This document shows positions 5,296 through 25,243 of a DNA stretch of 64,000 nucleotides, in pieces. Every line of letters begins with the position of its first letter. Positions within the stretch are counted from its first letter, which is position 1. This DNA comes from Salinispira sp. (GTDB lineage Bacteria; Spirochaetota; Spirochaetia; DSM-27196; Salinispiraceae). Made by a program: the position numbers and the translations under genes. Under the pieces are notes generated by a model. The model was not told where the DNA came from. It saw only the letters and a program-made list of their open reading frames with translations, and did not search any database. The DNA lies in NCBI GenBank assembly GCA_965602015.1, contig OZ271918.1:2752001-2816000 (forward strand), in the 5' to 3' direction.

Positions 5296-6358
5296 GGAGT
5301 GCCCCAAAGCTTGTTGAGTTCTTGTTTCAGTCATAAATATACTTTGGGACATAGCGTTTCATTGAAATCCCTGGATTTCTCCATGCCATAAACCAGGTTT
5401 TATTCGCTTGATCATCAAGTTCGATTTTTGATCTAAATACCCGACGCATCATGCCTTTGGATAGATTGTCAAGGATTAACTCCCTATTCGCACCTGCTAT
5501 CTCGGCACGAGTAGTTTGTGTTCCTTTTCGATACTGCCTTACCCGATGAGGGATAATGCAGTTATGAAAAAGCTGGTATACCGTCAATCTGCTCATCATT
5601 GCCGACGGACATCGAGCAAACTGAACCGTCTCGCGCACATGATCAGACAAGTCTTTCCGGAATTGCCGATCACAATAATTCACCGGAAACAAAGGATTTG
5701 AACGAGCTCTAAGCTCTTTTGAAGAGATCCTGGAATGATGCATACATCGAGATAACCCCCTGACCTCATTAAATGCTTCGGGATAGCAGTGGTGTTCATC
5801 TGTATACAATCGCGCTTCGATCTGCTCTTTTTGAGCAATCAGCTTAAGGAGCACATCGAAGAGCATCTTCATTGATCGTTTTGTAGATCTGGAGTCTGCA
5901 ACTGCTGTTTCTTCTAATAATTTCCGCTTCCTTTTCTGTGCTTTTGTCATTTTACCTTTACGTCTGAGTATTGATAATCCAATCGCATATAGATATTCGC
6001 TTTCAGAACCAACCAAGATATTGATATTGTTAGGGAAGAATTGGCTTCGAGAAAAAGATTCAAAGCCATCTGCACAAAAATTCTCCTTCGATTTGAGCAA
6101 GGGTTGAAGAAAACTGAGGATTCCGAGGGCTGAGCGCGATAACCTTTCAATTCGATTTTGAATCACATCAACGCTGACACCCAGCAATCGTGTCAAATCC
6201 CATAGCCCCGAGCAGGTTACCAAGTGATTGTCATCACCGGTGCTAAATTGCAGGAAATCACCGGACTAAAATTGCAGACTCCGGCTTGAAAAAAAGGGCG
6301 ATGCTACCTTGTAATGGTTGTTACCACACAATCATTCAAGTAAGGAGCACGCCCTAAA

Positions 6359-7609
6359 ATGCTGGAGCTACTGATGCATGAAGCACAGATGTTGAAACAA
6401 CAGGGTAAGAGAATCGGTCAGATCGCCGAAGCCCTGGGAAAAAGTGAACGCATGGTTCACTACTACCTTGCAGAGCCTTCAAGGTCTCGAAAGAAGCGGA
6501 ATTACACGAGCAAGCTCGATCCGTTCAAACCCTACATCGACACTATACTCGAGGAAGACCCGTCCTTCAATCGGGAGGTTCTGTTGAGGAACCTGCGAAA
6601 ACAGAAATACGATGGCGGGGTCACAATCCTCAGGGATTATGCTGCCAGGAAGGCTGCAGATATCACAAAACAGGCAGTTATCCGGTTCGAAACCGAACCG
6701 GGCTACCAGGCTCAGGTGGATTGGAAAATCCTGGGAAAACAGCTGGTGGACGGACGGTGGCAGAAACTCTATGCCTTTGTCATGGTATTCGGCTACTCGA
6801 GAATGCCGTTTGTCATTCATACCACGAGCATGGACATGGCCACCTTTCTGATGTGCCACGTATTGGCATTCACATATTTTGGCGGGGTGCCGGAAGAAAT
6901 CCTGTACGACAACATGAAAACCGCCTTTATCTACCAGGCCGCAGAGGAGAAATGGCAGGTCAACAAGCACCTGCTGTCTCTGGCCCGGCACTATGGATTC
7001 ACACCCCGCCGATGCCAGGTCCGCCGGCCTCAGACCAAAGGAAAGGTCGAACGGTTCATCCAGTTCTACGAGAACAACTTCTGGATCGAGCACAAAGCAC
7101 TGCCAGCTGGACTGATTGAGTTAAACGAAGCAGTCATCACCTGGTGCGAGGATATCAGCCACAGAGTCATCGGCGGGCTCAATGAAAGCCGATCAGAACG
7201 CTTTACGCATGAAAAGGCTTTCCTTACCCCCTTACCAACGCAGCCGTTTGATTACCGGAAACCGACCAATGTGCGTGTCTCCGGTGAATCTCTGGTACGG
7301 GTGAGAAACAACTGGTACAGCGTTCACCCGCAATTCATTGGTGCAGAGGTAATTGTACGTATCGATCCGCTCACCGGTGAGGCCGAAGTATCATCAGAGG
7401 ATCAGATCATCCGAACCTTCATGCTTAACCTCGAATTGCGAAATCAACGGTTCTACCTGGCTGAACACTCAGCGGCGCTGACCGAGCTCTGGAAAAGGCA
7501 GTACCGGATACCCAAGAGAAGAAAACGGATAAAGGTTTCTACCGATGTTGATGTCCGCTCACCTGGGGAGTACGACCGCTTGTTTGCACTGCAGGAGGCG
7601 GCCTCATGA
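6359..7609 (+). CDS. istA: IS21 transposase IstA
   Basis: 'RFETEPGYQAQVDW', 'LYDNMK', 'KGKVER' DDE motifs; N-terminal HTH. Confidence 0.96.
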   Translation: MLELLMHEAQMLKQQGKRIGQIAEALGKSERMVHYYLAEPSRSRKKRNYTSKLDPFKPYIDTILEEDPSFNREVLLRNLRKQKYDGGVTILRDYAARKAADITKQAVIRFETEPGYQAQVDWKILGKQLVDGRWQKLYAFVMVFGYSRMPFVIHTTSMDMATFLMCHVLAFTYFGGVPEEILYDNMKTAFIYQAAEEKWQVNKHLLSLARHYGFTPRRCQVRRPQTKGKVERFIQFYENNFWIEHKALPAGLIELNEAVITWCEDISHRVIGGLNESRSERFTHEKAFLTPLPTQPFDYRKPTNVRVSGESLVRVRNNWYSVHPQFIGAEVIVRIDPLTGEAEVSSEDQIIRTFMLNLELRNQRFYLAEHSAALTELWKRQYRIPKRRKRIKVSTDVDVRSPGEYDRLFALQEAAS

Positions 7610-8367
7610 CTAGTAAAAGCACAATGATTACAGCCCGTATGGAAGAGTTGGGTTTGAGCTTCATGGCTGCCGGTCTGGACAGTTTTCTCTCAAGCCAGGT
7701 GAATCAGGATGCGCCTCTGATTGAAGCGATCGGAGAACTCATTGATCTGGAACTGATTCCCCGAAAGGAACGAATGGCCAAAACCCGCTTGAAGGTTTCA
7801 GGAATTCCCCAGGGAAAGAATCTTGAATCCTTTGATCTGTCATGGCCGAAAGGCGGTCTTACACACAAGCAGTTCAACGAACTGTCCACCCTTGCGTTCA
7901 TTGAACGTAAAGAGAATGTCATTCTGCTTGGTCCCAGTGGATTGGGTAAAACGCACCTCATGACAGCGCTTGGACAGAAGGCATGTATGAATGGGTATAC
8001 GGCCTATTTCATCAGCTGTCTTGATTTGCTTGAACGATTACAGCGTTCCCGGGATCAGGGAAGATTGAAAAACAAACTGACCTGGTTTGGCAAACCCCAC
8101 GTTCTGTTGATTGATGAAGTTGGGTATGAAAACCTGAATGCTGAGCAGGCAGCCTTGTTTTTCCAGCTGATCAATACCCGCTATGAGCATGGATCAATCA
8201 TTCTGACCAGCAACAAAGTATTCGGGAAGTGGGGAGAAATCATGACTGATGACGCAGTTGCTACGGCCACTTTGGACCGGCTGCTTCATCACTCCCATGT
8301 GATCAGCCTGAAAGGAGACTCGTATCGGATGAAGGATCGAATGAAAATCGGAGTCGTTGACTTCTAA
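7606..8367 (+). CDS. istB: IS21 helper ATPase IstB
   Basis: Walker A GPSGLGKT, Walker B LLIDEVG, 'ATLDRLLHH..I.LKGDSYR'; ATGA overlap with istA. Confidence 0.96.
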   Translation: MTSKSTMITARMEELGLSFMAAGLDSFLSSQVNQDAPLIEAIGELIDLELIPRKERMAKTRLKVSGIPQGKNLESFDLSWPKGGLTHKQFNELSTLAFIERKENVILLGPSGLGKTHLMTALGQKACMNGYTAYFISCLDLLERLQRSRDQGRLKNKLTWFGKPHVLLIDEVGYENLNAEQAALFFQLINTRYEHGSIILTSNKVFGKWGEIMTDDAVATATLDRLLHHSHVISLKGDSYRMKDRMKIGVVDF

Positions 8368-8819
8368 AAAATTTGCCGGAAGTCTGCAATTTAACTCCGG
8401 TGAAAAACTGCAATTTCATTCCGGCGTTGACAGTGATGGAAGATCATCAGATAGTCGACCTTCTTTTTTGCATAATAATCAATATTAAAACTCTTACTGG
8501 AAAAAGTTCGTCCACAACCTTTGCAACGAACACGAGAAATCTTTCCATCAATTTCTGTCCAATATGCGCCATGAGAACTCAACCATGAGCCTGTGCTAGG
8601 AGGTGAGCAAAAGAAGGTACACTTTGGATTCGGGCAGTGTGGCAACTTGCTCATTATCATCTCCTTGGCGCTATCTCATATATTAGAAACACCACCTGGT
8701 TATTGGCTTTGCTTCATTTAACAAGCTTTGGGGTACTCCAATTGATTTACCACTCCGACTGAATTAAGATTTAACTGAACCAGGCAGAAACAACCAAACA
8801 GAAGGAAGCCACCCAGGCC

Positions 8820-10235
8820 ATGAATCCGTTTTTTTCCACCCCCAGTTTGATTCTCGCCGGCAGCATGCTGGGCCTAACAATGGGAATTACGCTTCTGGTA
8901 CACGGCACAATGACAAAAACCAGGATGGGGCATTGGTTTGGGACTGCACTGCTCCTCGTTTCGTTTGGTATTATTTCATTCCTGTTTGATGGCCGTTTGC
9001 CGGCTTTGGTTCAACAGCTTATTTCAACTGTTCCGCTTCTTGCCGGGTTTATGGTCTATGAGTTCGGGTTCAGTCATATTTTTCGCAGACCGCTTCGGCC
9101 TGCGGTTCCCCTGATTGCCCTTTCGCTAAGCATTCCATTGCTCGCAGCGGGAACCTTGATCTGGGATAGTTTTATTTTCCGCACAGTGGCGGTAAACAGC
9201 ATTCTCGTTTTTTACTTGATTCGGGTGTCGCTACTTTGCTTTGCCCAAGCGAGGGTACTACCCAAGACCGCGGTCCGTCTTTTTGGTTTTTTAAATCTTA
9301 TGCTGGCATTGGCTCCGCCGATCAGTCTTGCGTTTATTCTTGCGGATTCCCAGACCATCACGGTTAGTAATCATGGTTTTATCAATAGTTTTTACTTCTT
9401 TATGTTTTATTTGTGGATGTTTGTCCTGGTCGGCGGGTACTTTGAGTTTCGCGGCTTGGATAATCGGCAAGAGGACAAGACACAGCGGGATGCTGAAGAA
9501 CTCCTCCTTGATAATCAGCGGTTCCTGAACAGGGTAATCAGTCATGATTTGAACGGTCCCCTGAGCAGCCTGCACAATCTTCTTGTGGAACTGAGAGATT
9601 TACTTCGCGCCGGTCAAATACCCGAGAGTCAGTTTGTCGACGTTATGGTAGACGTCAGCCGTTCGAGTAATCGCCTTCTGCAAAATGTGAGCGATCTTGG
9701 CAAGTATCAGCTTCACCGGGCACTTCCCCGTCCAAGGGAAACCCTCCTTGCACCTTTACTGTGGTCGTCCATTGAATCGATGGAGGTCGAGGCTCAGCTT
9801 CGCAATATTGAAATAATTCAGGAGTTTCAGGAAGATTTATTGGTGCTGGCTGACCAACAGGGTTTACAGGCAGTGGTTCGCAATCTTCTTGAGTTCTTCA
9901 TCGATAGGAGTCCGAAAAACAGTTTTATTCTTCTTCAGGCCGTGCGAAGCAGGGATGATAAAACGCTCATCAATATCCGGATCAAAGATCAGGGCGATGC
10001 TCTCGCTCCGGATTTTATTTCTGATTTAGCAGAATATCTGAATAGACGTCATAATCTCTATTCGAAACAGGAAAATGCCTCAAGCATTGGATTGATGGTT
10101 ATGCTAACGGTCTGCAGAGAACTCAACTGGGATTTGATTTTTTCCAACTTGGATAATAATGAGGGAGTTCAGGCGGAACTTCGCATTCCCGCGTCAGGCA
10201 GTAGGCAAAGCGGGATGATCGACCCGGAGGTCTAA
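8820..10235 (+). CDS. Multi-TM sensor histidine kinase-like protein with degenerate ATPase boxes
   Basis: About 7 TM helices, H-box 'ISHDLNGPL'; N/G boxes diverged ('NLLEFFI', 'DQGDAL', 'SSIGL'). Confidence 0.75.
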   Translation: MNPFFSTPSLILAGSMLGLTMGITLLVHGTMTKTRMGHWFGTALLLVSFGIISFLFDGRLPALVQQLISTVPLLAGFMVYEFGFSHIFRRPLRPAVPLIALSLSIPLLAAGTLIWDSFIFRTVAVNSILVFYLIRVSLLCFAQARVLPKTAVRLFGFLNLMLALAPPISLAFILADSQTITVSNHGFINSFYFFMFYLWMFVLVGGYFEFRGLDNRQEDKTQRDAEELLLDNQRFLNRVISHDLNGPLSSLHNLLVELRDLLRAGQIPESQFVDVMVDVSRSSNRLLQNVSDLGKYQLHRALPRPRETLLAPLLWSSIESMEVEAQLRNIEIIQEFQEDLLVLADQQGLQAVVRNLLEFFIDRSPKNSFILLQAVRSRDDKTLINIRIKDQGDALAPDFISDLAEYLNRRHNLYSKQENASSIGLMVMLTVCRELNWDLIFSNLDNNEGVQAELRIPASGSRQSGMIDPEV

Positions 10236-10765
10236 TCACCCAGTATTATTACTTCTCCGATCACCGTTACTGCAACTTTTCCATCAACGAGCGCCTGACC
10301 GATCATCGATGCAAAATACCCGTCGAAGTCGAGTTTTTTCGCCAAGAGGGTGACTGTGCTGCCTGGCAGGATGGGCTCGAGATAATATGCGCCTGCGATT
10401 CGGGTGGCCCGGGCCGGGACTGGAACCGCATCGGATGCAATATCGGTTTTCCCCCGGGTCTCGAAATAGTACATGCATAGGCCGAGCTGACCGATCATCT
10501 CGAGGGTAAAATTCCCCGGATAGAGCGGAGCGCCGGGGAAATGTCCCTGAAATACCGGATCGCCGGGATCGATATAACGATCTCCGGCGATAAGTCCGGC
10601 ATCCAGGTCAAGACCGGTGATTCGGTCAATGAATAGCAGAGGTTCCCGATGGGGAATGATTTTCTCTATATCCTTTTTTCCATAGTCGCAGCTGACCGGT
10701 AGCGTAGACGGGTCGAACAGAGCTTTTTTTCGGAAACTGCGAAGCAGCTTATCGGGATCGTTCAT
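10232..10765 (-). CDS. FabZ-like 3-hydroxyacyl-ACP dehydratase
   Basis: 'IPHREPLLFIDRI', 'FQGHFPGAPLYPG...EMIGQ' hot-dog dehydratase motifs. Confidence 0.88.
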   Translation of the reverse strand: MNDPDKLLRSFRKKALFDPSTLPVSCDYGKKDIEKIIPHREPLLFIDRITGLDLDAGLIAGDRYIDPGDPVFQGHFPGAPLYPGNFTLEMIGQLGLCMYYFETRGKTDIASDAVPVPARATRIAGAYYLEPILPGSTVTLLAKKLDFDGYFASMIGQALVDGKVAVTVIGEVIILGD

Positions 10766-10780
10766 TGTTGTCCGGTCCTT

Positions 10781-10842
10781 TTTTTTGCGCGCTCGTTTAA
10801 TTTTGCGCGATCATGTTTTTTGCGCAATCATGTTTTTGGCGC
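10781..10842. repeat. Short imperfect tandem repeat (TTTTGCGCRATCATG-like, ~18-19 bp period) in the spt-fabZ spacer
   Basis: ttttttgcgcgctcg / ttttgcgcgatcatg / tttttgcgcaatcatg / tttttggcgc. Confidence 0.55.
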
Positions 10843-10885
10843 TTGTACTATCATTCGGCACTTGAATTGTGCTTTACGGCGCAAA

Positions 10886-12142
10886 CTAGGCTTTAAGGCC
10901 CTTCGCGATGACGTCTTCCATTATGTTGAGTGCTGTATCCATATCTTCCCTGTTGAACTGGGATGAGACTGAGATCCGGAACCGTCGGGCATGGGCGGGA
11001 ACCGCCGGATAGTCAATGGGCTGGAGAAACAGTCCCCGCAGCTGCATTTCGGCGGCGAAGCGAAAGAGTTTTTCTCCGCTTGGCCCGATGATCACCGGGA
11101 TGACCTGGCTTTCGCTGTCGCCGATGTCCAGGCCCATAGCCTGTATGTTTTCCTTGAGGTAGCGGGTATTGGACCAAAGTTTATCCCGCAGGCTTGAATC
11201 TCTGGTAGCCACTTCCAGGGCCTTGATGAGTCCTGCTACAACAGGGGGGCTGGGGGCGCAGGAGAAATTCCAAGCGGATGCATATCCTTTGAGATAGCGG
11301 ACTATGGATGAATTTGAGGCGATGAATCCGCCGACTCCGCCGAAGCTCTTGCTCAGGGTTCCGTATGACATTCCCACCTTATCTTCAAGGCCGAAGTACT
11401 CGCCGATGCCCCCGCCATGGTCTCCGAACATGAGGGTTGAATGAGCCTCATCCAGGTAAACCGGTGTGTTGTACGCATCCGAGAGCTTGACGATTTCCGG
11501 GAGCTTGCAGAGATCCCCGTCCATTGAATACACGCCTTCGACGCAAATCAGTTTTCTCTTGTCTTTGAACTGCTCGAGCTTTTGCTCGAGGCTGTTCATA
11601 TCATTGTGATCGAAAAAGACCATCTTGGCGCCGGAAAGGGTTCCTCCGTCGATCAGGCTTTTATGGATTTTTTCATCGAAGATGACCACATCGCCTTTAC
11701 GGAGCAGTCCCTGGAGGGCGCCCACGTTTCCGCCGTATCCCGATGAGAATAAAAGGGCATCTTCCTTGCCTTTGAGTTTTGCCAGTTTTTTAGCGAACTC
11801 AAGGTGGAGATCCAATGTGCCCGATACAAGCGGTGCTCCGGAGGAACTCATGCCGTATTTATCCACCGCTTCCTTCACCGCTTCAAGCACTTCCGGATGA
11901 GTGGACAGACCCAGGTAATTATAGCTGGTCATGTTTATCATCTTCCGGCGTTTCCCATCCAGATTACTGAGTATTTCAGTCTCCGCGCTGGGCGCCTTCA
12001 ACAGGCTCTGTCCGGTAAAACTGAATGCAGTCTGAACTTCGGGATCCAGGAACCATTCCTCGAAATCCCGAGGCGGGTCCAGAACATTGGGACTGTCGTT
12101 ATAATGAAAATCCGCGAGACTAAAATCGGTAGCTTTTGCCAT
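10886..12142 (-). CDS. PLP-dependent alpha-oxoamine synthase (serine palmitoyltransferase-like)
   Basis: 'SYNYLGL', 'EGVYSMDGD', 'LDEAHS', PLP lysine in 'GTLSKSFG'; adjacent to an ACP and in an operon with a CerS-like GNAT. Confidence 0.85.
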   Translation of the reverse strand: MAKATDFSLADFHYNDSPNVLDPPRDFEEWFLDPEVQTAFSFTGQSLLKAPSAETEILSNLDGKRRKMINMTSYNYLGLSTHPEVLEAVKEAVDKYGMSSSGAPLVSGTLDLHLEFAKKLAKLKGKEDALLFSSGYGGNVGALQGLLRKGDVVIFDEKIHKSLIDGGTLSGAKMVFFDHNDMNSLEQKLEQFKDKRKLICVEGVYSMDGDLCKLPEIVKLSDAYNTPVYLDEAHSTLMFGDHGGGIGEYFGLEDKVGMSYGTLSKSFGGVGGFIASNSSIVRYLKGYASAWNFSCAPSPPVVAGLIKALEVATRDSSLRDKLWSNTRYLKENIQAMGLDIGDSESQVIPVIIGPSGEKLFRFAAEMQLRGLFLQPIDYPAVPAHARRFRISVSSQFNREDMDTALNIMEDVIAKGLKA

Positions 12143-12300
12143 GGTAATTCCTCATTTTGGGATAGATCCGGATGTGGGGTGGATGATGAGAAAGACGGGA
12201 TGATATCCAGGTATGACCGGAGGCCCCATCCCCTGCCGGAACGTCACCGTCCGGCGGAACGGAAATGATCCCGAGCCGCCGGTGGTGAAAGTGGAGCGTA

Positions 12301-12543
12301 CTACTCGACGTGCTCCATAAATTTGTCAGCGAGTCCGTCGATGTCACCGATGTCAGCCAGTTCGGAACGGGGGATCTTGATATCAAGGTCCCGCATTGAA
12401 CAGCTGACAACTTCGATAATATCGAGGCTGTTGGCGCCGTAATCCTTCATGGACTTGGAGGCGTCAATTTCATCCATTTCGATATCATCAAGATTATCGA
12501 CGATGTTTTTTTTGATGACTTCAATGACTTCGTTCTTCGTCAT
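12301..12543 (-). CDS. Acyl carrier protein, AcpK/donor-ACP type
   Basis: 80 aa, acidic; 'GANSLD' Ppant serine and 'IKIPRSEL', as in beta-branching donor ACPs. Confidence 0.88.
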   Translation of the reverse strand: MTKNEVIEVIKKNIVDNLDDIEMDEIDASKSMKDYGANSLDIIEVVSCSMRDLDIKIPRSELADIGDIDGLADKFMEHVE

Positions 12544-12610
12544 GATGTCTCTCCTCTATTAAATCCGTCTCAGTACGGCAAACTCACGGGCGAAAAACCC
12601 GTGGACCGAA

Positions 12611-13432
12611 TCAGGACGTTTGGTTCCGCTTCTCCTTCCAGAGGAGGAAGCGGTGCATGGTATTATCTGAAAAAGGATGGCCGTAGTCAACATTCACCAC
12701 CTGACCATTCATTCCGTCCATGTATCCGCTTGCAAAGGCGAATACCGCCTTTCCGCATTCGTCGGGAGTGAGAATGAGACTTTCATCCGCAAGCCCCTGC
12801 TCCCGAATGTAATCGAAAAACTCTTCCCCAAAAATGGCCGAGAAGCTTTCGGTTTTCACCTGTCCGAATCGAATGACATTAACCCGGGAACCCTCGGGCA
12901 GAAGATGGGCGGCCATATACTTGCCGAAAAATTCCAACAATGCCTTGGAGGCCGCGACATAATCATACCCCGGATAAAAATGATCGGGGCCGTCGCTCGA
13001 TATGCCGATTACCTTCGCCGGATATCTGCCGAATTTCGCCTTTATTTTCCGGGTGTATTCAATCATCGGCCAGGTTGAGTAGTCCAGGGTTTTATACAGG
13101 CTTCGTTTTTTGTATGCGTCGAGATTCTTCATGGTTGCCGCATAGCCCACATTGCTGATAAATATGTCGATGCCTTCGGCAATCCCGGCGGCTTTCTCGA
13201 GCAATGCGTCAGTATCATCATCGTGGGAAACATCAGCCTGAACCAACAGCGGTTCCGGTGCCCCGGCATCGGAAAACTGCTTCTTTAATTCGTCCATGTC
13301 CGCCGATCCCCATTTATAGGTGAGGATCGTTTGGGCGCCGGCCTTCCCGAAATAGAGGGCCGATGCCAGACCGATGCCCTTGGTGCCGCCGGTAATCAGA
13401 ACTGTTTTTCCGCTCATGTCTATTGTAATCAT
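12611..13432 (-). CDS. SDR, FabL/FabI-like enoyl-ACP reductase
   Basis: 'TGGTKGIG'; 'YPGYDYVAASK' (Y-x6-K spacing of SDR enoyl reductases). Confidence 0.7.
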   Translation of the reverse strand: MITIDMSGKTVLITGGTKGIGLASALYFGKAGAQTILTYKWGSADMDELKKQFSDAGAPEPLLVQADVSHDDDTDALLEKAAGIAEGIDIFISNVGYAATMKNLDAYKKRSLYKTLDYSTWPMIEYTRKIKAKFGRYPAKVIGISSDGPDHFYPGYDYVAASKALLEFFGKYMAAHLLPEGSRVNVIRFGQVKTESFSAIFGEEFFDYIREQGLADESLILTPDECGKAVFAFASGYMDGMNGQVVNVDYGHPFSDNTMHRFLLWKEKRNQTS

Positions 13433-13549
13433 GTTTTCTCCTCTCAGGCCTAATCTCCGCCCCGGCGCTGAGCCTCGCTATGATTTGCGGGCTTAGCCCA
13501 TCGCAGACGGATACATCAATAATTTTGCCGTTGCAGTATAGAGATTTTT

Positions 13550-14362
13550 TTAGCCAGCGTACAAATCGTCGATTATTTTTTTGGTTTCCGGATATCCGAA
13601 ACTCAGCGCATGCATCATATCCTCCTGAAGGCGGGCTTCGATGAGCAGCTTTTTTTTCACTGCTGCCAGGGAGTACTTAAGCAATTGCACAGATTTGGGA
13701 TTTTTTTCGGCGATCTGAATGGCGATATCCCGGGCTTTTTCCAGCACCTCGGAGCGCGGAAGAATGTAATTGATATTGGTGGATTTTTCCGCCAGCTCCC
13801 GTCCCTTGTACCGCTTCCCGGTAAACATCATTTCATTCGCAATGTAGGATCCCACGGCCTGCTGAAGCAGGGTGGTGGTTCCCATTCCCGGGGTGAATCC
13901 CATGTTCATAAACACCGTTCCATACCGGGCCTCGCGGGCGGCGATGATTATGTCGGAGCACAGTCCGATGACAAAGCCCCCTCCCATCGCATGTCCTTCC
14001 ATGGCGGAAATCACGGGAAACCGGCAGTTGATAAGCCGCTCGGAAATCACCAAATCCCGCACAACGATTTTACCGCTTGCCAGCTCCATAAGGCTGTCCT
14101 TGTCAGCACCGCCGGAAAATGTGCTGTCCAGCCCACGGAGAATCAAAACCCGGGGATTCGATTCTTCAATTTCATCGAGGGCCAGGAGAAAGTCGGCGAC
14201 AAAATCATGGGAGAATACATTCTGCCCGGGAACATCATGCATGAACAGGGTCGCAATTTCCCTCTCGTCGATTGCCCAGGAGACCCGGCCGTAGCGCTCG
14301 TGAAGCTCCTCGGCTGAACTCCCCTCCTGGTATTCGCTTATTTCTGCTTTTTTGCTCATCAT
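13550..14362 (-). CDS. Beta-branching decarboxylase ECH2 (PksI-like)
   Basis: Crotonase fold; 'GHAMGGGFV', 'FMNMGFTPGMG', C-terminal 'EDMMH'. Start set at ATG 14362, which overlaps the upstream stop. Confidence 0.88.
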   Translation of the reverse strand: MMSKKAEISEYQEGSSAEELHERYGRVSWAIDEREIATLFMHDVPGQNVFSHDFVADFLLALDEIEESNPRVLILRGLDSTFSGGADKDSLMELASGKIVVRDLVISERLINCRFPVISAMEGHAMGGGFVIGLCSDIIIAAREARYGTVFMNMGFTPGMGTTTLLQQAVGSYIANEMMFTGKRYKGRELAEKSTNINYILPRSEVLEKARDIAIQIAEKNPKSVQLLKYSLAAVKKKLLIEARLQEDMMHALSFGYPETKKIIDDLYAG

Positions 14363-15324
14363 TGCATTCCTTTTCCCGATATGGGATTCTCCGGCTTGAA
14401 CCGGGCGAACCACCCGGGAGCCTCTCCGTTGGCAAATGCTTCAAGCCCCGAAAGCACCGCAGGATCTTCCATCCGCGTTAACAGAGCGTCTCTACCTTGC
14501 GAGAGTTTGCTTTCAAAGCTGCTGTCTATCGCAGCAGAGAAAAAGTCCTTGGCGGAGGCCAGGGCCCCGGGTTCGGCGCGCATCATGGTCTTGATTGTGA
14601 TTTTCGCTTTTCGTTCGATCTGATCCGCGGGGTAGACCTCATCTGCCAGTCCGTAATCCCTCGCCCGTTCGGCTCCGATGCGCTGAGCGCTGAGAACGAG
14701 ATAGCGAAATCGCTGAGGGTTCATCCTCAGGGAGAACACATAGGGAAGCACATTGTAGGGAACAAGTCCGAACAGCACTTCCGACAGTTCCCAACTTGCG
14801 GTTTCCGACGCGATAACCACATCACAGGCGGCGGCAAGCCCCACCCCCCCGGCCTTTACGTCACCCTCGACCAGTGCGATTACCGGTTTCCCGCCTTTCA
14901 TTATTCGGGCCAGCAGCCGGGCATATGCATCAACCGCCTTCCGACGCAGTGCGACCGGGTCGCCGGACGATGGATCATTCGGGTCGCCGGCCGACGGATC
15001 ATTTGTGTCGCCGGCCGCCGGAGCATTCTGGCTGCCCGCCGCCGGAGCATCGGGGTCGCCGGGCGCAGCGGCAGCGCTATTGGAGCCCTCGCCCTGTTCT
15101 TCAAGGCTTTGCTGAAGATTATCCAGATCCATTCCGAGACAAAAGCTTTCCTCTCCGGATCGTATCAGGATTAGTTTGACCCGCGGATTGTTTAAGGACG
15201 ACTCAATTTCGGCAGACAGGGCCGCAATGCCGTCGTAGTTTAAACGATTTCCCCGCCCATCGGACATGTGAATAACCGCAAGCCCGCTATCTTCATAGGA
15301 GCTGACGGTTTTAGGCGAAGTCAT
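14359..15324 (-). CDS. Beta-branching dehydratase ECH1 (PksH-like)
   Basis: 'FCLGMDL', 'GDVKAGGVGLAAACD', 'LSEVLFGLVP'. Confidence 0.88.
   Translation of the reverse strand: MTSPKTVSSYEDSGLAVIHMSDGRGNRLNYDGIAALSAEIESSLNNPRVKLILIRSGEESFCLGMDLDNLQQSLEEQGEGSNSAAAAPGDPDAPAAGSQNAPAAGDTNDPSAGDPNDPSSGDPVALRRKAVDAYARLLARIMKGGKPVIALVEGDVKAGGVGLAAACDVVIASETASWELSEVLFGLVPYNVLPYVFSLRMNPQRFRYLVLSAQRIGAERARDYGLADEVYPADQIERKAKITIKTMMRAEPGALASAKDFFSAAIDSSFESKLSQGRDALLTRMEDPAVLSGLEAFANGEAPGWFARFKPENPISGKGMQ
14957..15070. repeat. 24-bp tandem repeat (~4.5 copies) encoding an A/G/D/P/N-rich insert in ECH1
   Basis: Units at 14957, 14981, 15005, 15029, 15053 (GGGTCGCCGGCCGACGGATCATTC-like). Confidence 0.85.
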
Positions 15325-16534
15325 AGCTGCGGTACCAGTCCTTCACCGCCTTGAGAACCAGAAGCCCCGAGCCCTGGTAATGTTTTTTGTACCAGCCGTC
15401 GAGAACCGTGAAGTCTGGTTCAAAATCGGGATTTTCGATATAGGTTTCCCGCAGTTTTTCTAGTTCTTCGTATTCCTCGACGCTGCATACCCGCCGGGCG
15501 TCGAGCTTTTGGTCTATTTTCATTTTTGCCAGTTCGGCCTTTGCGCCGGGAAGTACTTTGCCCGAATAGAATTCGCCGATAGCCCCGGATCCGTAGGCAA
15601 ACAGGGCGATGTCCTTGCCCTCCACATCGTCGGCATGGTTCACCAGTGCCGCCAGCCCCGTGAGATTGCTGGTGCCGTATGTCGATCCCACCCGCCGGCT
15701 GTAATCCAGAGCGGGCAATACCCGGGCATTAAAGTCTACCTTGAGCTCAGCCTTCTTTTTTGGAGCATTTTCCCGGGTCAGGGCCCGATGGGCCTGGAAG
15801 GCGATTCCCGGAAAGGGGGTGTGGTACACGAAATAGGCGAAATCCTTGTCGAAGTCGGTGGATCCGGCATTTCGCTGGTAATCCTCATATGCTCCCTGGA
15901 CCGCATCCATGTAGGAGAACAGGCTTACTTCATTGTTTCCCACTTCTGCCTGAGCGGAGGGACGGAAGGTATCGTAGATGTCGGTTGTCCAGGATCCCTT
16001 CTTCTCGGGATAGTATTCGAGTATTTTCGGCGTATCGGAGATTAGCGCCGCCGCTGCACATCCGCCGAGCACAAATTCTTCCATGAGGCCCAGATGCTGC
16101 CGGGAAAAATCAGTGGCGATAACCAGGGCTTTTTTTCCTTTATTGAGCCCGGAAGCGATCCAGTTCACCGCCGCATCGATTCCCGCAACCCCGGAGTAGC
16201 AGGCGAACTTCGTTTCGAAGTTGCGGACGTTTGATCCCAGGCCGAGGGCGCGGTGTATGTTTGTCGATATGGGTTTACCGAAATCAACCGAACCTTCGGT
16301 ACCGACGATGAGCATGCCGATATCCTTTTTATCTTCCTCGCTCAGTATGGCAAGGGCGGCATTGGCCCCCATGGTTACGGTATCTTCCCAGGCCGGATTG
16401 AGGCTTCGGGTTTCGATGAGATAGTCGTTTTTGATCTGCTCGGGATCCCTGCCCCGGGCAACGGCCAGGTCGGCCTGATTGAGACACATGGATGTGCCGT
16501 ACATGTTCAGCTTTTCTATGCCTACTCTATTCAT
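15311..16534 (-). CDS. HMG-ACP synthase (PksG/HCS-like)
   Basis: 'TEGSVDFGKPIST', catalytic 'ETKFACYSG', 'HTPF', 'YGSG'; AGGAG RBS before ATG 16534. Confidence 0.9.
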   Translation of the reverse strand: MNRVGIEKLNMYGTSMCLNQADLAVARGRDPEQIKNDYLIETRSLNPAWEDTVTMGANAALAILSEEDKKDIGMLIVGTEGSVDFGKPISTNIHRALGLGSNVRNFETKFACYSGVAGIDAAVNWIASGLNKGKKALVIATDFSRQHLGLMEEFVLGGCAAAALISDTPKILEYYPEKKGSWTTDIYDTFRPSAQAEVGNNEVSLFSYMDAVQGAYEDYQRNAGSTDFDKDFAYFVYHTPFPGIAFQAHRALTRENAPKKKAELKVDFNARVLPALDYSRRVGSTYGTSNLTGLAALVNHADDVEGKDIALFAYGSGAIGEFYSGKVLPGAKAELAKMKIDQKLDARRVCSVEEYEELEKLRETYIENPDFEPDFTVLDGWYKKHYQGSGLLVLKAVKDWYRSYDFA

Positions 16535-16572
16535 GCTTTGCTCCTGTATGTTCACGCTCCAGAGACAAGGTC

Positions 16573-17316
16573 CTATGGGGCGTAGGTAAGTCCGGCGGCA
16601 ACCCGTATGTCCTCGCCGGTAATAAATCCCGCCTCATCGGTGGAGAGGTAGTATACCGCGGAGGCAATTTCTTCTGCGGTGCCCACTCTCCGGGCGGGGC
16701 AGTGCTTGACCCAATAGTCTTTAAGCTGATGAGCCATGTTATCGTCTGTCATGTCTGTAGGAACGAAGCCTACGGTTACGATGTTGCTGGTTATGCCCTT
16801 TTTCCCGTATTCCTTGGCGATGGTGAGGCTCATCCCGTGAAGACCCGCTTTGGCCGCCGCGTAATTGACCTGTCCGCTTGAACCGTAGGCCGCCAGGGAA
16901 GACACATGGACAAGCCGGCCCTTTCTGTTGGAGAGGAAGTGGAGGAGAAAACTTCTGGACACAATAAACGGCGCGGTCAGGTCAACATCGATAACGGTCT
17001 TCCACTCCTCGTCGCTCATCAGGGCAGCCGCGTTGTCCCTGAGAGTGGCGGCGTTGTTTACCACAGCGGTCACGCTGCCGAAGTCTTTGATGGCGTTTTC
17101 GCACACTTCTTCAATGGCGTGGTGGTCTACCAGGTCGAGCTGGTAGGATCGGATGTCGGCATCGGAACGCAGTTCCTTGGCCTGGGCTATAGTCTCGTCG
17201 GCGGCTTTACTGTTGGATGCGTAGGTAAAACCCACGTCCCATCCCTCTGAAATAAAACGGAGCACGATGGCCCGCCCGATTCCCCGGGATCCCCCGGTAA
17301 TAAATGCTGCGGGCAT
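16573..17316 (-). CDS. fabG: 3-oxoacyl-ACP reductase (FabG-like SDR)
   Basis: 'TGGSRGIG', 'VNNAA', 'GQVNYAAAK'; start overlaps the KS stop (TAATG). Confidence 0.85.
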   Translation of the reverse strand: MPAAFITGGSRGIGRAIVLRFISEGWDVGFTYASNSKAADETIAQAKELRSDADIRSYQLDLVDHHAIEEVCENAIKDFGSVTAVVNNAATLRDNAAALMSDEEWKTVIDVDLTAPFIVSRSFLLHFLSNRKGRLVHVSSLAAYGSSGQVNYAAAKAGLHGMSLTIAKEYGKKGITSNIVTVGFVPTDMTDDNMAHQLKDYWVKHCPARRVGTAEEIASAVYYLSTDEAGFITGEDIRVAAGLTYAP

Positions 17317-18599
17317 TATTCCTCCCACTTTTTGATCAGGCTGCAGCAATTAAGGCCGCCGAATCCGAATGAATTTTTAAGCATGTACTTCACCTCCCAC
17401 TCCACGGGACCGTCGGCGCACACATCGGCCTCGATCTGGGGATCCAGGTTATCGACGTTGATGGTCGGGTGCAGTTTACCGTGATTCATCTGCATAATGC
17501 CCCCGATGGTTTCTACCAGGGGACTGGCCCAGCAGGTATGGCCAAGCATGGATTTGGGGGCGTTGATTTTCATGTTCTTGATATGCTCGCCAAACACGTT
17601 TTTGAGCGCGGTGAACTCCTGCACGTCTCCGGCGGGGGTGCCGGTCGCGTGGCAGTTCGCGTAGGAGACTTGCTCGGGCTTAACGCCGGCATCCTCCAGG
17701 ACCTTCCGCATGACCCAGGCCTGATGTTCGGATCCAGGCATGGGCAGATGGTTCGCGTTGGCATTTGCCCGGACCGCTAAGATTTCCGCGTATATCTTCG
17801 CGCCGCGGGCTTGGGCTGACTCCAGGGTCTCCACCACCAGAGCGGCGGATCCGTGACTGTACACGAATCCGTTTCGTCCGGTATCGAAGGGCCGACAGGC
17901 CTTTTCGGGATTATCATTAAGCTCTTTATCCATCACCACCGAATTGATGATGACTGAAGCCTGAATATCAGGCTCGGCGACATCGAAAAGGGCTCCGCTG
18001 ACCAGGGCCCGCTCGACCTCTCCGGACTTAATATCCCTGAAGGCATCCCTCAGAGCCAGGTTACCGCTGGCGCAGGCGCCGCCAACGGTGTAGCAGGGGC
18101 CGTGGACCTGCAGAACTTCGGAGATCAGGGCGGGCACATTGTTGTCGATGGCTTCTACGGAGCTGAGGGGATCGAGATACTCGGGCTCCTCCTGATACTG
18201 CTTGCTCATTTTATATATGTACTTTGAGTTGAGGTTATGACCGCCGACTACAACCATGGTCATGTAGGGATCGATATCCCGTGCTTCCAGACCGGCATCG
18301 AGCCAGGCATTTTGCGCCGTCAGGACGGCAGTTCGGGACGAGAATGTGGCACTGCGGAAGAGTTTGCGGACCCTCTTGAACTTTGCCTCCCCGATATTGT
18401 CCTTGATGCGCTCCAGGGCCGCGGCGGTGTCGTAATCTCCCAGATCCCCTCCAACCCGGTTTTCACAGGCATCGAGGTCAAGGCTCTCCCATTTTTTTAC
18501 TCCGGATTTTCCGGCCAGCAGGTTATCGTAATACTGGTCAACGTCATCTCCCAAGGGATTGATTGTTGCCATACCGGTTATAACTATTCGAGTGCTCAT
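17316..18599 (-). CDS. Stand-alone ketosynthase, PksF-like but with the active-site Cys
   Basis: 'VVVGGHNL', 'YTVGGACASG', 'HATGT', 'KSMLGH', 'NSFGFGG'. Confidence 0.88.
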   Translation of the reverse strand: MSTRIVITGMATINPLGDDVDQYYDNLLAGKSGVKKWESLDLDACENRVGGDLGDYDTAAALERIKDNIGEAKFKRVRKLFRSATFSSRTAVLTAQNAWLDAGLEARDIDPYMTMVVVGGHNLNSKYIYKMSKQYQEEPEYLDPLSSVEAIDNNVPALISEVLQVHGPCYTVGGACASGNLALRDAFRDIKSGEVERALVSGALFDVAEPDIQASVIINSVVMDKELNDNPEKACRPFDTGRNGFVYSHGSAALVVETLESAQARGAKIYAEILAVRANANANHLPMPGSEHQAWVMRKVLEDAGVKPEQVSYANCHATGTPAGDVQEFTALKNVFGEHIKNMKINAPKSMLGHTCWASPLVETIGGIMQMNHGKLHPTINVDNLDPQIEADVCADGPVEWEVKYMLKNSFGFGGLNCCSLIKKWEE

Positions 18600-18662
18600 A
18601 CTTTGTTAACTCCATTGCCCGTCGCCATAAAAACGCGAGCGGGATTTATAAATTGACTGCTA

Positions 18663-19610
18663 CTAGCTGATTTTGTCGATTGCCTCGATGGTGCCTGCGG
18701 GTTTTGCCCGTAATTCTTTGTAGAAAGATTTCCACAGGCCGCCTAAAACCTTGCCCGGTCCGACCTCGAGAACCAGATCGTCTTCTGCGCCGGTTATGAT
18801 TGAGTTGTCGATGAGGTACTGCATGGATGAAACCCATTGCACCGTTGAAACGATCTGTTCACCGGCCCGCAGCCGGGCTTTGTCTCCGCTCTCAAGCGGC
18901 CTTCCCGTAACATTCGAAATAATGGGCAGCTTAGGATCGGAAAAGCGTAGGTTCGCGGTGCGCTGCTGGAATTCCTTTCGGGCGCTCTCCAGAAGAGGCG
19001 AATGAAAGGGGCCGCTGACTTTGAGCCGAACGACTTTCATTGCGCCGGCCTCATCAAGGGCGGCTTCGGCGGCATCAAGGCCTTCGGCGGTGCCGGCAAT
19101 CACCATCTGAACCGGAGAACTGTGATTGGCTATGAATACACCCTTTCCCGCGAGGGGTTCTACCACAGCCCGGGCATCTTCAAAGGGGAGGCCCAGGACC
19201 GCTGACATTGCGCTGGGTCCCACGGGGCTGTCGGCAGCCCGGGAGCCTTTTTCCATCACTTCGCCGCGGATTGCCACCGCTTCAAAGAGGTCTTGAGTCG
19301 AAAGCACACCGGCTTCGTGCAAGGCGGCGTACTCGCCGACGGAAAAACCCATGACCGCGTCGGGTGTGAATCCCTTGGAACGCAGCAGGGCTGCCGCGCT
19401 AATGTTCATCAGGGTGACAGCCGCCTGGGTATTGTCGGTTTGCTTGAGGTCATCCTCGCTTCCATCAAACATCAACGCCGCCATGTCTTTTCCCAGCACC
19501 CGGGAAGCCGAGGCAAACAGCCCCCGGACCTCATCGCTGGCCTCGTACAAATCTTTCGCCATACCCGGATACTGGGCTCCCTGACCGGGAAATAAAAAAA
19601 CCGTGCTCAT
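18663..19610 (-). CDS. fabD: Malonyl-CoA:ACP transacylase
   Basis: 'FPGQGAQ', 'GFSVGEY', conserved Arg, 'VSGPFHS', 'EVGPG'. Confidence 0.92.
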   Translation of the reverse strand: MSTVFLFPGQGAQYPGMAKDLYEASDEVRGLFASASRVLGKDMAALMFDGSEDDLKQTDNTQAAVTLMNISAAALLRSKGFTPDAVMGFSVGEYAALHEAGVLSTQDLFEAVAIRGEVMEKGSRAADSPVGPSAMSAVLGLPFEDARAVVEPLAGKGVFIANHSSPVQMVIAGTAEGLDAAEAALDEAGAMKVVRLKVSGPFHSPLLESARKEFQQRTANLRFSDPKLPIISNVTGRPLESGDKARLRAGEQIVSTVQWVSSMQYLIDNSIITGAEDDLVLEVGPGKVLGGLWKSFYKELRAKPAGTIEAIDKIS

Positions 19611-19622
19611 ATAAACCGTCCC

Positions 19623-20750
19623 TTACAATGACTTGCCGTATACCCGGTGAGTCCGATAATGCTCGGCTCCCCAGTTTTCAAGCATATTCCTCAGATCGAG
19701 ATTGGATTCCAGAATCCAGCTGAACTCCGCCCCCGCTATGCCCATGCCGACGCTTCGCTTGTACAGTTCGTAGACGAACAGGGCGTCGATTCCCTTCTTT
19801 TGGTAGGCCTTGCGCACGCCGAATGCGGCGATGCGGATGTTCTCGCATTTTTTCTTGCCCGCCAGAAGCTTAAAGACCCCGAAAGGAAGAATTTTACCGT
19901 TTAAACCGTGGAAGACCGGGTTTAGATCGGGGATGGGGAAGGCAAAACCCACCGGCTCGCCGTCGACATAGGCGAACAAGGTAATATCGGGCATTATCGC
20001 CATCTTCAACCCGTCGGCCAGTTGATCGAATTCCTGTTTATTCCAGGGGACATATCCCCAGTTGTCAGTCCATGCGTCATCCCACATATCCCGGACGTAG
20101 TCAAGATCGCGCTTCCAATTCTTCATATCGACATTGCGGATCTCCACCCTGCTCCGTTTCCGGGCCAGTTCGGCAACCCGGACGATTTTGTCGCTGAGTT
20201 TCATGGTGGTTTTCATGCGGTAGGAATACAGATCCTGGTCCTTGGTGTAACCGGCGGACTCATAGTGTTTTCCGTAGTACGGCGGGTTGTAGGGCATCTC
20301 GATAACCGGCAGGGTTTCGAAACTGTCTATCTGGTTACCAAGCTGATAATTGGTCGAACCGTGAACCGGTCCCATGGCCTTTTCCATTCCCCGCTCGCGC
20401 AGCCAATCCTCTGCGGCGGCGAACAGCGCGGAAGATACCTCTTCATCGTCGTAGGCCTCGAAGAAGCCCACAAATCCGGTTTTGGTATTCTGATACGTGC
20501 AAAAAGCGCGGTCCACGATGGCGACGATGCGGCCCACAACCTCACCGTCCCTCCAGGCGAGGAACTCCTGCAGCTCCGCATGATCGAATAGTCCGTTATG
20601 CTTGCGGTCGAAAAGGTGCTTCACATCCATATCTAAGGGCGGGACCCAGGCGTCATATTTCGTCGCCTGGCCGCGGTACACCCGATAAGGAAATTTCATA
20701 AAGCGTGAAAAATCCTTTTTGCCGTCTAACGGCCTCACTTCAACTGCCAT
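19623..20750 (-). CDS. Double-GNAT acyltransferase resembling bacterial ceramide synthase (CerS)
   Basis: 375 aa; 'F.KFPYRVY...WVPPL..D', 'FLA.RDGEVVGRIVAI.D', 'GFVGFFE', 'MPYNPPYY', 'W.DNWGYVP', 'PDLN', 'EFSWILESN', 'YRTHRVY'. This pattern matches the CerS family as I recall it; not verified by search. Confidence 0.72.
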   Translation of the reverse strand: MAVEVRPLDGKKDFSRFMKFPYRVYRGQATKYDAWVPPLDMDVKHLFDRKHNGLFDHAELQEFLAWRDGEVVGRIVAIVDRAFCTYQNTKTGFVGFFEAYDDEEVSSALFAAAEDWLRERGMEKAMGPVHGSTNYQLGNQIDSFETLPVIEMPYNPPYYGKHYESAGYTKDQDLYSYRMKTTMKLSDKIVRVAELARKRSRVEIRNVDMKNWKRDLDYVRDMWDDAWTDNWGYVPWNKQEFDQLADGLKMAIMPDITLFAYVDGEPVGFAFPIPDLNPVFHGLNGKILPFGVFKLLAGKKKCENIRIAAFGVRKAYQKKGIDALFVYELYKRSVGMGIAGAEFSWILESNLDLRNMLENWGAEHYRTHRVYGKSL

Positions 20751-20788: not shown

Positions 20789-20818
20789 AGTATACGGGGA
20801 ATTCTCAAAAATTGGCAA
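20789..20818 (-). promoter_or_regulatory. Putative sigma70 promoter of the lipid operon
   Basis: TTGCCA-18 bp-TATACT on the minus strand, ~40 bp upstream of the first gene. Confidence 0.5.
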
Positions 20819-20915: not shown

Positions 20916-20943
20916 AAAAAAAAGACCGGCCGGCGGCCGGTCT
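20916..20943 (-). terminator. Rho-independent terminator after the 21015-21683 gene
   Basis: AGACCGGCC/GGCCGGTCT stem followed by a T8 run on the minus strand. Confidence 0.8.
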
Positions 20944-21014
20944 CTTAATACTGCATACAATGCCTGTACCCCGGCGACAGATTCGTACGCGGGGGCACGT
21001 ACCGATTATACGGG

Positions 21015-25227: not shown

Positions 25228-25243
25228 CGCGCTGTTTCTCCGC

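Follow-up and report, generated by a model that had tools for sequence, protein, structure and literature searches.

A free-standing beta-branching cassette beside an oxoamine synthase in Salinispira, a candidate pathway to methyl-branched ceramide-like lipids

Eleven genes at the locus

We analyzed a 64,000-nt stretch of the genome of Salinispira sp. (assembly GCA_965602015.1, contig OZ271918.1, positions 2,752,001 to 2,816,000; the window), which holds a predicted operon combining a beta-branching cassette of the kind associated with polyketide synthases (PKSs) with an alpha-oxoamine synthase (AOS) and a relative of bacterial ceramide synthases (bCerS). Coordinates are positions in this window, except those preceded by G000, the host genome (C1 is its contig); other L and G numbers denote compared loci and genomes. 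The list of open reading frames (ORFs) and Pfam and NCBIfam scans bore out the original prediction of eleven genes in the same orientation on the minus strand, from 20750 to 10232, in both coordinates and families, together with the start/stop overlaps it described (1 nt between the ketosynthase (KS) gene and fabG, 14 nt between HCS and ECH1, and 4 nt between ECH1 and ECH2). The remaining intergenic gaps are 12–158 nt, and the GC content of most operon genes is close to the genome value of 53.8%. In order of transcription, the genes encode a GNAT-family protein, FabD, the KS, FabG, a beta-branching 3-hydroxy-3-methylglutaryl (HMG)-synthase (HCS), two further cassette enzymes (ECH1 and ECH2), an enoyl-acyl carrier protein (ACP) reductase (ER), an ACP, the AOS, and FabZ. 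The FabD malonyl-CoA:ACP transacylase (18663..19610) was assigned by PF00698, and family scans identified the FabG-like 3-oxoacyl-ACP reductase (16573..17316; its likely start is the ATG overlapping the KS stop) and the FabZ-like 3-hydroxyacyl-ACP dehydratase (10232..10765), all on the minus strand.

The 5′ boundary of the operon is set by a terminator-like hairpin that ends the upstream gene (20920..20946, minus strand; a 12-bp stem followed by a T run). A single promoter had been proposed for the operon. There is indeed a sigma-70-like candidate 39 nt ahead of the GNAT start (20789..20818, minus strand; 10/12 consensus matches), which is a plausible operon promoter, but the scan as a whole did not rise above chance (5 promoter-like sites against 10.1 expected from shuffled sequences, that is, fewer than chance).

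Branching enzymes and a ketosynthase with its catalytic cysteine

The KS (17316..18599, minus strand; hereafter KS*) is PksF-related: its best NCBIfam match is PRK07103 (335 bits against a cut-off of 445), and it is sister to a genuine PksF from the trans-acyltransferase (trans-AT) cluster L045 (support 100, with one PksF row only). The KS0 of such cassettes is defined by a missing catalytic Cys (PMC7618002). The Cys-His-His triad of KS* is intact, with Cys176 retained in the window copy. The Cys was also retained in 35/35 other cassette-linked copies with an aligned site, and both His motifs were intact where visible, whereas the control PksF of L045 has Ser at the Cys position. The retained Cys rules out a decarboxylating-only KS0 and suggests that KS* can elongate, acting as a condensing enzyme.

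The other components of the predicted cassette held up. HCS (15311..16534, minus strand) keeps an aligned catalytic Cys, and its best solved structures are CurD (258 bits, E 2e-75) and PksG (236 bits), with CoA-type HMG synthases at 193 bits or less. ECH1 (14359..15324, minus strand) is a CurE/PksH-like dehydratase by family and position (PF00378, with NCBIfam PRK07112 among the top matches); it bears a low-complexity insertion of about 40 aa, and its relatives are mostly 266–305 aa long. ECH2 (13550..14362, minus strand) is a decarboxylase resembling PksI and the ECH2 of CurF (PRK07110 over the cut-off; PksI and CurF are the best matches in PDB), with the catalytic His aligned and kept relative to both. 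The Tyr and Lys positions of CurF were not conserved in the ECH2 alignment, and no prediction of regiochemistry was drawn. The single ACP (12301..12543, minus strand) is of the donor (AcpK/CurB) type: PRK07117 is its best model, below the cut-off, and CurB its best match in PDB (E 6e-8). The operon ACP is strongly conserved among loci. The GANS motif is a mark of AcpK. Finally, ER (12611..13432, minus strand) is FabL/FabI-like, with a FabI as its best PDB match; its Tyr-x6-Lys motif is invariant in 11/11 aligned copies, and it is 90% identical to the copy in L024 (Salinispira sp.). ER served as the family-specific marker of the operon.

Spread and conservation

The order KS-fabG-HCS-ECH1-ECH2-ER-ACP-AOS-fabZ is conserved in Spirochaetota, Ca. 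Firestonebacteria and FCPU426. Cassette-type HCS was found in 7/7 other genomes of the family and 6/33 others of the order, and the ER marker in 16/300 sampled genomes of the phylum. A single-protein scan of named genomes gave nine loci (Salinispira (2), Spirochaetaceae, Spirochaetales, Brevinematales (2), Ca. Firestonebacteria, FCPU426 and an uncultured bacterium). In the metagenome scan, 483 of 598 pattern matches were confirmed among the matches listed and 78 loci were kept, of which the best 48 were analyzed (the 30 left out were at 31% identity or less). A locus was called complete if it had KS, HCS, ECH1, ECH2, ER and ACP together, and 39/75 screened loci were complete. The duplicates or halves L012, L020, L021, L024, L147 and L149 stand outside this count, as do L023 and L145; the last is a lone ER, whose genome (G052) encodes HCS and AOS on contigs other than that of the ER. 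Because several loci are closely related, the locus counts are not independent.

Among the 39 complete loci, FabG is present in 39, AOS in 37, FabZ in 37, FabD in at least 20 and PPTase (a phosphopantetheinyl transferase, below) in at least 19; the two without AOS (L072 and L096) stop at contig ends. An extended short-chain dehydrogenase/reductase (SDR) adjoins 5 of them (7 with L017 and L022, counted under their own queries) and a classical SDR 6. The GNAT had been taken for a core member of the operon, a status it loses here: it adjoins only 12/39 complete loci and is thus an accessory neighbor.

Two genes that had been overlooked, as had the retained KS Cys, are FabF2 (4051..5295, plus strand; TIGR03150, 489 bits against a cut-off of 494), an operon-specific elongating KS, and an Sfp-type PPTase (3231..3995, minus strand; PF01648). 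FabF2 forms its own clade (support 99), separate from housekeeping FabF, and occurs in 25/39 complete loci, usually convergent on fabZ or ahead of KS*. Judging from the compared loci, FabF2 and the PPTase belong to the operon set and are cut off in the window by insertion sequences.

Metagenomes also contain a second, rearranged form of the operon, in which two ER paralogues flank the ACP and FabF2 is lacking (L076, L082, L083, L086, L087, L089, L096 and others). Both reductases keep the Tyr-x6-Lys motif, and KS* is the only KS in L076, L082, L083, L086, L087 and L089. L083 also has YghO, an extended SDR, a PPTase-like gene and an MMPL-type transporter, and L089 has a sterol-type methyltransferase. 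On the Serratia fonticola plasmid pSF001 (L043, L044), the cassette consists of fabD, ACP, fabZ, KS (Cys retained), fabG, HCS, ECH1, ECH2 and ER; KS and HCS are doubled across the record origin with frameshifts, probably an assembly overlap.

The oxoamine synthase forms a clade outside the characterized families

The AOS (10886..12142, minus strand) is a pyridoxal 5′-phosphate-dependent enzyme of a cassette-specific clade, with a putative role in off-loading the chain onto an amino acid. Its catalytic residues His160, Asp231, His234, Lys265 and Arg389 are invariant in 44/44 aligned sequences. It scores below every curated cut-off, including those of the models for serine palmitoyltransferase (SPT; 333/640 bits for the CFB-type model, 264/500 and 222/670), and its best solved structure is the Sphingobacterium SPT (273 bits), with a cysteate acyltransferase structure at 195 bits. 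For comparison, the true Kbl elsewhere in G000 scores 613 bits against a cut-off of 460. The AOS phylogeny that had been suggested as a check was run as three trees, the first with 169 of 173 rows (4 short ones dropped) and two smaller ones with 57 and 72 rows. In all three, the AOS lies outside BioF, Kbl and ALAS (branches of support 99–100 in the two smaller trees), and outside the clade with the SPTs of Sphingomonas, Roseomonas, E. coli BL21, actinobacteria and the CFB type. Scores and trees together rule out a BioF, Kbl or ALAS identity. Grouping the AOS and its sisters with the characterized SPTs was rejected by an approximately unbiased (AU) test (p-AU 3.3e-5, on a quick LG+G4 tree with groups partly named post hoc), which along with the sub-cut-off scores rules out a canonical SPT; earlier AU tests (SPT p 0.0012, BioF p 6e-45) were biased, as sister rows had been omitted.

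The AOS of both operon forms make up one clade of 19 rows (support 100), with the AOS of L076 and L089 in a neighboring branch just outside. The wider group also holds PigH-type proteins, whose clusters were recognized by gene order and by PigD/RedY labels, and two AOS (L169 and L170) behind monomodular type I PKSs, presumed from gene architecture only to be homologues of SgaB. PigH uses serine. We consider the operon AOS likely to be an off-loading enzyme that works like an SPT-type enzyme while lying outside the canonical SPT family. Such activity has precedents: SgaB, a non-canonical AOS with proven serine-specific SPT activity, releases a PKS-made chain onto serine (PMC12134224), and ACP-preferring SPTs are on record (PMC9386255). 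The ESM Atlas returned only generic AOS clusters for the AOS.

The simple idea that the AOS replaces SPT was rejected, showing only a weak trend: a CFB-type SPT (called at 480 bits or more in the phylum sample) is present in 4/16 ER-positive genomes and in 48/93 that are ER-negative and YghO-positive. Separately, CFB-type SPT-like genes (480–608 bits, cut-off 640; for example, L164 on G046:C107 and L165 on G106:C1) were seen in 56/300 Spirochaetota genomes, 52/56 of which have a YghO/bCerS homologue, sometimes adjacent, and free-living spirochaetes may commonly make ceramides by the canonical route. Other oxoamine synthases came to light as well. P0057, a single polypeptide of 2140 aa, combines one ECH domain with two domains each of the oxoamine-synthase and HMG-synthase types, apparently an independent coupling of the two chemistries, and its AOS is unrelated to the operon clade. 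A stand-alone uncharacterised oxoamine synthase is carried by Bacteroidales conjugative plasmids of 43–95 kb (L034, H32–H42); on the one inspected, it adjoins a TetR regulator.

A putative ceramide synthase-type acyltransferase

The GNAT (19623..20750, minus strand; PF00583) is a putative ceramide synthase, that is, an N-acyltransferase of the YghO/bCerS family, whose members are tandem-GNAT proteins. The original prediction of a module of SPT plus a CerS-like enzyme was half right, as the GNAT is a full-length homologue of the bCerS family and the AOS is not a canonical SPT. The GNAT is 32.7% identical to YghO of E. coli BL21 over 382 aa (E 5e-68) and 32% identical to the Sphingomonas gene in cerS position over 387 aa; overall, full-length identities of 32–38% were obtained with YghO and with the cerS-position genes of Sphingomonas, Roseomonas, Rubrobacter and Streptomyces spt loci. 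Full-length matches to YghO or to proteins labeled 'dATP pyrophosphohydrolase' occurred in 45/46 plasmid records, and the four matched plasmid loci that were inspected all lay within spt clusters. No NCBIfam model matched the GNAT, and no solved structure was found for its family. The proposed check of its relatedness to CerS was made through YghO and the cerS-position genes rather than the Caulobacter sequence itself: yghO (ECD_02850) is listed as a homologue of CC_1154, the Caulobacter CerS (PMC9386255), and the Roseomonas spt locus has the Caulobacter order described in PMC11324152.

A YghO/bCerS homologue is present in 16/16 ER-positive genomes and 93/284 others of the 300-genome phylum sample (kin are not independent), as well as in 5/5 genomes from named records. 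G000 has three bCerS homologues and no canonical SPT, only the operon AOS and Kbl, which leaves the operon AOS as its only candidate source of long-chain bases. The two further bCerS paralogues (G000:C1:296255–297442 and 3036135–3037328) each lie beside a GPH-family MFS symporter, and possibly serve a salvage route in which long-chain bases or lyso-lipids are taken up and acylated again.

Candidates for the remaining ceramide functions were more scattered. Seven loci (L013, L017, L018, L022, L032, L083 and L087) have an extended SDR with the CerR fold next to the operon, the one in L013 being 29–36% identical to CerR-position genes, and a classical SDR lies beside six more. In the host genome, G000:C1:19509–20552 was the best match of every CerR-position query that matched, though weakly (E 3e-10 to 5e-17), and it is 35% identical (E 4e-63) to the SDR adjoining the operon in L018. 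The BL21 AcpR query had no match in G000. No AasR partner is in the operon, and the AasR query matched only generic acyl-CoA ligases elsewhere in G000. Membrane proteins of the lysylphosphatidylglycerol (LPG)-synthase type and glycosyltransferases (MGDG-synthase-like or GT4) recur beside the operon (L014, L015, L017, L018, L019, L022 and L031), hinting at glycosylated head groups. G000 has glycosyltransferase homologues elsewhere, and no match to the LPG-synthase-type membrane protein.

Host fatty-acid genes and the absence of a modular PKS

As predicted, the window has no modular PKS, and searches with PF00109, PF00698 and PF00550 found none in the complete genome either (G000, a single contig of 3,869,486 bases, 99.67% complete). 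PF00109 matched at 4 places, each within a frame of 428–446 aa (a stand-alone KS); PF00698 matched once, in the operon FabD; and PF00550 matched twice, in the operon ACP and the housekeeping AcpP. Housekeeping counterparts are encoded elsewhere in G000 (FabH, two further FabF, FabG, FabZ, FabV and AcpP), so the operon duplicates KS, ketoreductase, dehydratase, ER and ACP for a private purpose. The mevalonate-type HMG synthase is likewise a separate gene (G000:C1:2817429), just beyond the window.

FabD is the exception to this duplication. PF00698 matched in 38/41 genomes, always as a single copy. The operon FabD clusters with housekeeping spirochaete FabDs (support 99); fabD adjoins fabG-fabF in 11/12 fabD regions from operon-less relatives, and the fabG-fabF-fabH locus of G000 lacks it. 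The operon FabD is therefore best explained as a housekeeping-type FabD relocated into the operon. With the only FabD located there, expression of the operon would have to accompany all fatty-acid synthesis, a demand that is more in keeping with a membrane lipid than with a secondary metabolite and points to constitutive lipid synthesis. SPT genes near fabD in G012, G020 and G028 were considered as positional equivalents of the operon and rejected, these being housekeeping fab loci without a GNAT.

Genes for VorB, a fused 2-oxoacid oxidoreductase beta-gamma protein, butyrate kinase and phosphate butyryltransferase lie upstream of the operon (24313–28962, minus strand; VorB and butyrate kinase over the cut-off). 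The vor-buk-ptb genes directly adjoin the GNAT gene in G002; in the window, an RNase R gene and a gene for a 222-aa protein without a family intervene. In addition, G000 encodes a 1126-aa E1alpha-E1beta-lipoyl-FabH fusion without an E2 core (G000:C1:1660070–1663450, minus strand; L153:71–3451), which may feed starter units straight into fatty-acid synthesis. The fusion was matched in 29/40 relatives (8/13 operon-bearing and 21/27 others, a difference that is not telling). VorAB-Buk-Ptb and the fusion are other possible sources of branched primers, which lessens the need for an iso route through the operon.

A proposed pathway to a branched, ceramide-like lipid

The observations established here are the gene content, its conservation, the intact catalytic residues, the phylogenetic placements and the lack of a modular PKS. 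The reading that we favor, with moderate confidence, is that the operon is a private fatty acid synthase with a branching step, which would make methyl-branched acyl-ACP; the AOS would join this chain to serine, and bCerS and a reductase would complete a ceramide-like membrane lipid. In this scheme, the PPTase would activate the ACP and FabD would load malonyl. KS* would decarboxylate malonyl-ACP to acetyl-ACP and, having its Cys, would also condense to 3-oxoacyl-ACP. HCS would add acetyl to the beta-carbonyl, followed by dehydration by ECH1, decarboxylation by ECH2 and saturation by ER to 3-methylacyl-ACP. The same carrier type would probably be both donor and acceptor, given the one operon ACP, so selectivity would have to come from chain length or from AcpP as the acceptor. 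FabF2 or KS*, FabG, FabZ and ER would extend the chain. The AOS would then condense acyl-ACP with an amino acid, most likely L-serine, to a 3-keto long-chain base, which the bCerS-family GNAT would N-acylate and an unlinked extended SDR would reduce at the ketone. Branching at acetoacetyl-ACP would give isovaleryl-ACP and an iso terminus, an ACP-bound version of the myxobacterial AIB route, and branching of a longer 3-oxoacyl-ACP would give an internal methyl at an odd acyl carbon; we regard the two outcomes as about equally probable. The substrate serine, the amide linkage and the branch position are thus predictions from gene families. The OlsC/LpxO-like hydroxylase near the operon (2355..3113, plus strand; in the same place only in the window and G002) possibly performs acyl 2-hydroxylation, its link to the pathway being uncertain.

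The method of fatty-acid analysis used for the Salinispira type species would not reveal long-chain bases. That species contains iso-C15:0 (11.7%), iso-C13:0 (2.1%), iso-C14:0 (1.6%), anteiso-C15:0 (4.3%), C16:0 2-OH (1.8%) and a major unidentified aminolipid (PMC4511686), data that are compatible with the proposed lipid and not diagnostic of it.

Several results weigh against the proposed pathway. PMC4511686 reports no mid-chain-methyl fatty acid and does not mention sphingolipids. On the side of the AOS, there is the AU rejection of a grouping with characterized SPTs, two Arg-bearing motifs typical of SPT are replaced, and the link to PigH- and SgaB-like enzymes has an SH-aLRT support of only 81–94. 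AOS placed by similarity can also fail to make long-chain bases, as in Nostoc (PMC8895605), and the 4/16 ER-positive genomes with a CFB-type SPT have that enzyme besides the cassette. On the side of ceramide formation, YghO homologues are common anyway (109/300 phylum genomes), few complete loci have an adjoining GNAT, and a clear CerR orthologue was not found in G000, where the BL21 CerR-position query reached E 3e-10 at best. Lastly, some cassettes lack an AOS. In L023, the ACP is followed by unrelated genes, and no AOS was found with the operon AOS query in its genome (G007, 57% complete); on pSF001 there is no AOS, and the record has no PF00155 match.

Alternative readings share much of this evidence. 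The same branched chain could be joined to another amino acid. Alanine or glycine would yield 1-deoxy bases and cysteate would yield a capnine-type sulfonolipid; lysine is a further candidate. In any of these cases, the product would be an amino- or sulfonolipid and not a serine ceramide. Marine anoxic bacteria make many 1-deoxy-, glycine- and lysine-ceramides with enzymes unassigned (PMC11334938), and the position of the AOS outside the SPT clade, with its divergent motifs, would suit such a product. Yet the Sphingobacterium SPT structure scores 273 bits with the AOS and the cysteate acyltransferase structure 195. The nearest characterized enzymes of the broad group, moreover, use serine: PigH does so. 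SgaB does too (PMC12134224), its relevance depending on whether L169 and L170 are its homologues, which was judged by architecture only. We see another amino acid as rather unlikely. It is also conceivable that the cassette chiefly makes isovaleryl-ACP, from acetate alone, for ordinary iso-C13 and iso-C15 membrane fatty acids, with the AOS and GNAT tapping a shared pool. Its chemistry is that of the AIB pathway (PMC5389471), the only FabD sits in the operon, the type species has the corresponding fatty acids (PMC4511686), and pSF001 and L023 have the cassette without an AOS. This is nevertheless improbable, considering that the AOS almost invariably follows the ACP and co-diversifies with the cassette, that G000 has a full housekeeping set and the other branched-primer sources described above, and that the type species contains further fatty acids (iso-C14:0 and anteiso-C15:0; PMC4511686) that are beyond the reach of the cassette.

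The origin of the cassette enzymes in secondary metabolism would fit a secreted or signaling small molecule. For this, the AOS would join serine to a branched acyl-ACP that is unsaturated or carries a beta-keto group; cyclization of the product would give a pyrrole, as with PigH, and without cyclization it would be a free amino ketone or amino alcohol. Among the best full-length plasmid matches were PigH-type proteins that share the broad AOS clade and come from prodigiosin-like clusters. However, the compared loci showed no conserved gene for export, regulation or tailoring, the recurrent neighbors are bCerS, reductases, glycosyltransferases and LPG-synthase-type membrane proteins, and the housekeeping FabD is predicted to be co-transcribed; we give such a product little credence. 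Service to a modular PKS encoded at another genomic site, as for bacillaene and curacin, is suggested by the closeness of HCS, ECH2, ACP and KS* to PKS cassette proteins. In the complete genome, the family searches matched no more than four stand-alone KSs, a single AT and two ACPs, which refutes such service for G000 at their sensitivity, and we regard it as extremely improbable.

Beyond the favored pathway to a ceramide-like lipid, we put forward a bolder version of it only tentatively, and doubt it. The operon could be a PKS-free, self-sufficient branching fatty acid synthase of primary lipid metabolism, in which an intact PksF-clade KS and a single donor-type ACP, serving as donor and acceptor, would place at least one internal methyl (possibly in an isoprenoid-like pattern made without isoprenoid precursors or S-adenosylmethionine) on sphingoid bases of a new class, which AOS of a new clade would release. 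Such a system would be spread over several phyla and may be a lipid-making relative ancestral to the antibiotic beta-branching cassettes.

Relation to known systems

All parts of the operon belong to known families, and their combination is apparently undescribed: no description of a beta-branching cassette with an AOS and ceramide-type genes was found in the literature searched, most subscription journals lying outside that search. With the HMG-synthase cassettes of PKSs (AcpK/PksF/G/H/I of bacillaene and CurB/C/D/E/F of curacin), the operon shares a donor-type ACP, a PksF-clade KS, HCS, ECH1 and ECH2, each closest to those proteins. It differs in having no modular PKS or acceptor ACP domain, in keeping the KS Cys, and in adding its own ketoreductase, dehydratase, free-standing FabL-like ER, second KS and AOS. 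With the bacterial ceramide pathway (Spt-bCerS-CerR with AcpR/AasR, in Caulobacter and E. coli BL21), it has in common an AOS directly behind the ACP, a YghO/bCerS GNAT and, near some loci, extended SDRs; however, its AOS is no SPT orthologue, its ACP is not AcpR-like, AasR is absent from the operon, the chain is apparently built de novo on ACP, and no clear CerR was found in G000. The seryl-transfer AOS PigH/RedN of prodigiosin synthesis resembles the operon AOS in ACP dependence, in a similar N-terminal extension and in a substituted SPT-type Arg motif. PigH has fused ACPs and forms a pyrrole, and the other pig genes are absent from the operon.

The SgaAB(C) system of Pseudomonas fluorescens MYb115 and the operon both couple dedicated chain-building to non-canonical AOS release onto an amino acid (PMC12134224), and the presumed SgaB homologues share the broad AOS group with the operon AOS (support 81). 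SgaA is an iterative type I PKS, and its products are unbranched C24–C28 sphinganines (PMC12134224), whereas the operon has discrete enzymes, a branching cassette and bCerS. Lastly, the Myxococcus AIB pathway to isovaleryl-CoA (MvaS, LiuC, AibAB and AibC; PMC5389471) follows the same four-step logic of HMG synthesis, dehydration, decarboxylation and enoyl reduction, but is CoA-bound with another decarboxylase and reductase, while the operon enzymes are PKS-type and ACP-bound.

If the proposed pathway is correct, HMG-synthase beta-branching would move from antibiotic assembly lines into membrane-lipid synthesis, and the two known ways of making bacterial sphingolipids, canonical SPT and SgaAB, would be joined by a third. 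It would also be the first genetic case for sphingolipid-type lipids in spirochaetes, as far as our literature search reached. The predicted branched long-chain base would be a possible biomarker for uncultured anaerobes, and the operon a compact set of entirely stand-alone enzymes with which saturated methyl branches could be put onto acyl chains. As the genome is complete and the cultured type species of the genus contains an unidentified aminolipid (PMC4511686), the claim is directly testable.

Other features of the window

A membrane histidine kinase gene (8820..10235, plus strand) is convergent with fabZ; a homologue at the same place was seen only in G002, and the kinase is at most a candidate member of the operon set. 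Long ORFs of 180, 291, 948 and 567 aa (29185–30762, 35618–38464 and 46725–48428) had no NCBIfam match at the thresholds used, and those of 180, 291 and 948 aa also had no Pfam match. The insertion sequences that separate the operon from FabF2 and the PPTase gene (5327..8660, no strand assigned) consist of an IS21 element within a split transposase-like gene. The split gene, which belongs to no NCBIfam family, lies in two pieces (5327–6223 and 8391–8660), and ORFs resembling it occur at G000:C1:15804 and 1392726. The IS21 element (6228–8432; istA at 6359–7609 and istB at 7606–8367) has three more identical copies in G000.

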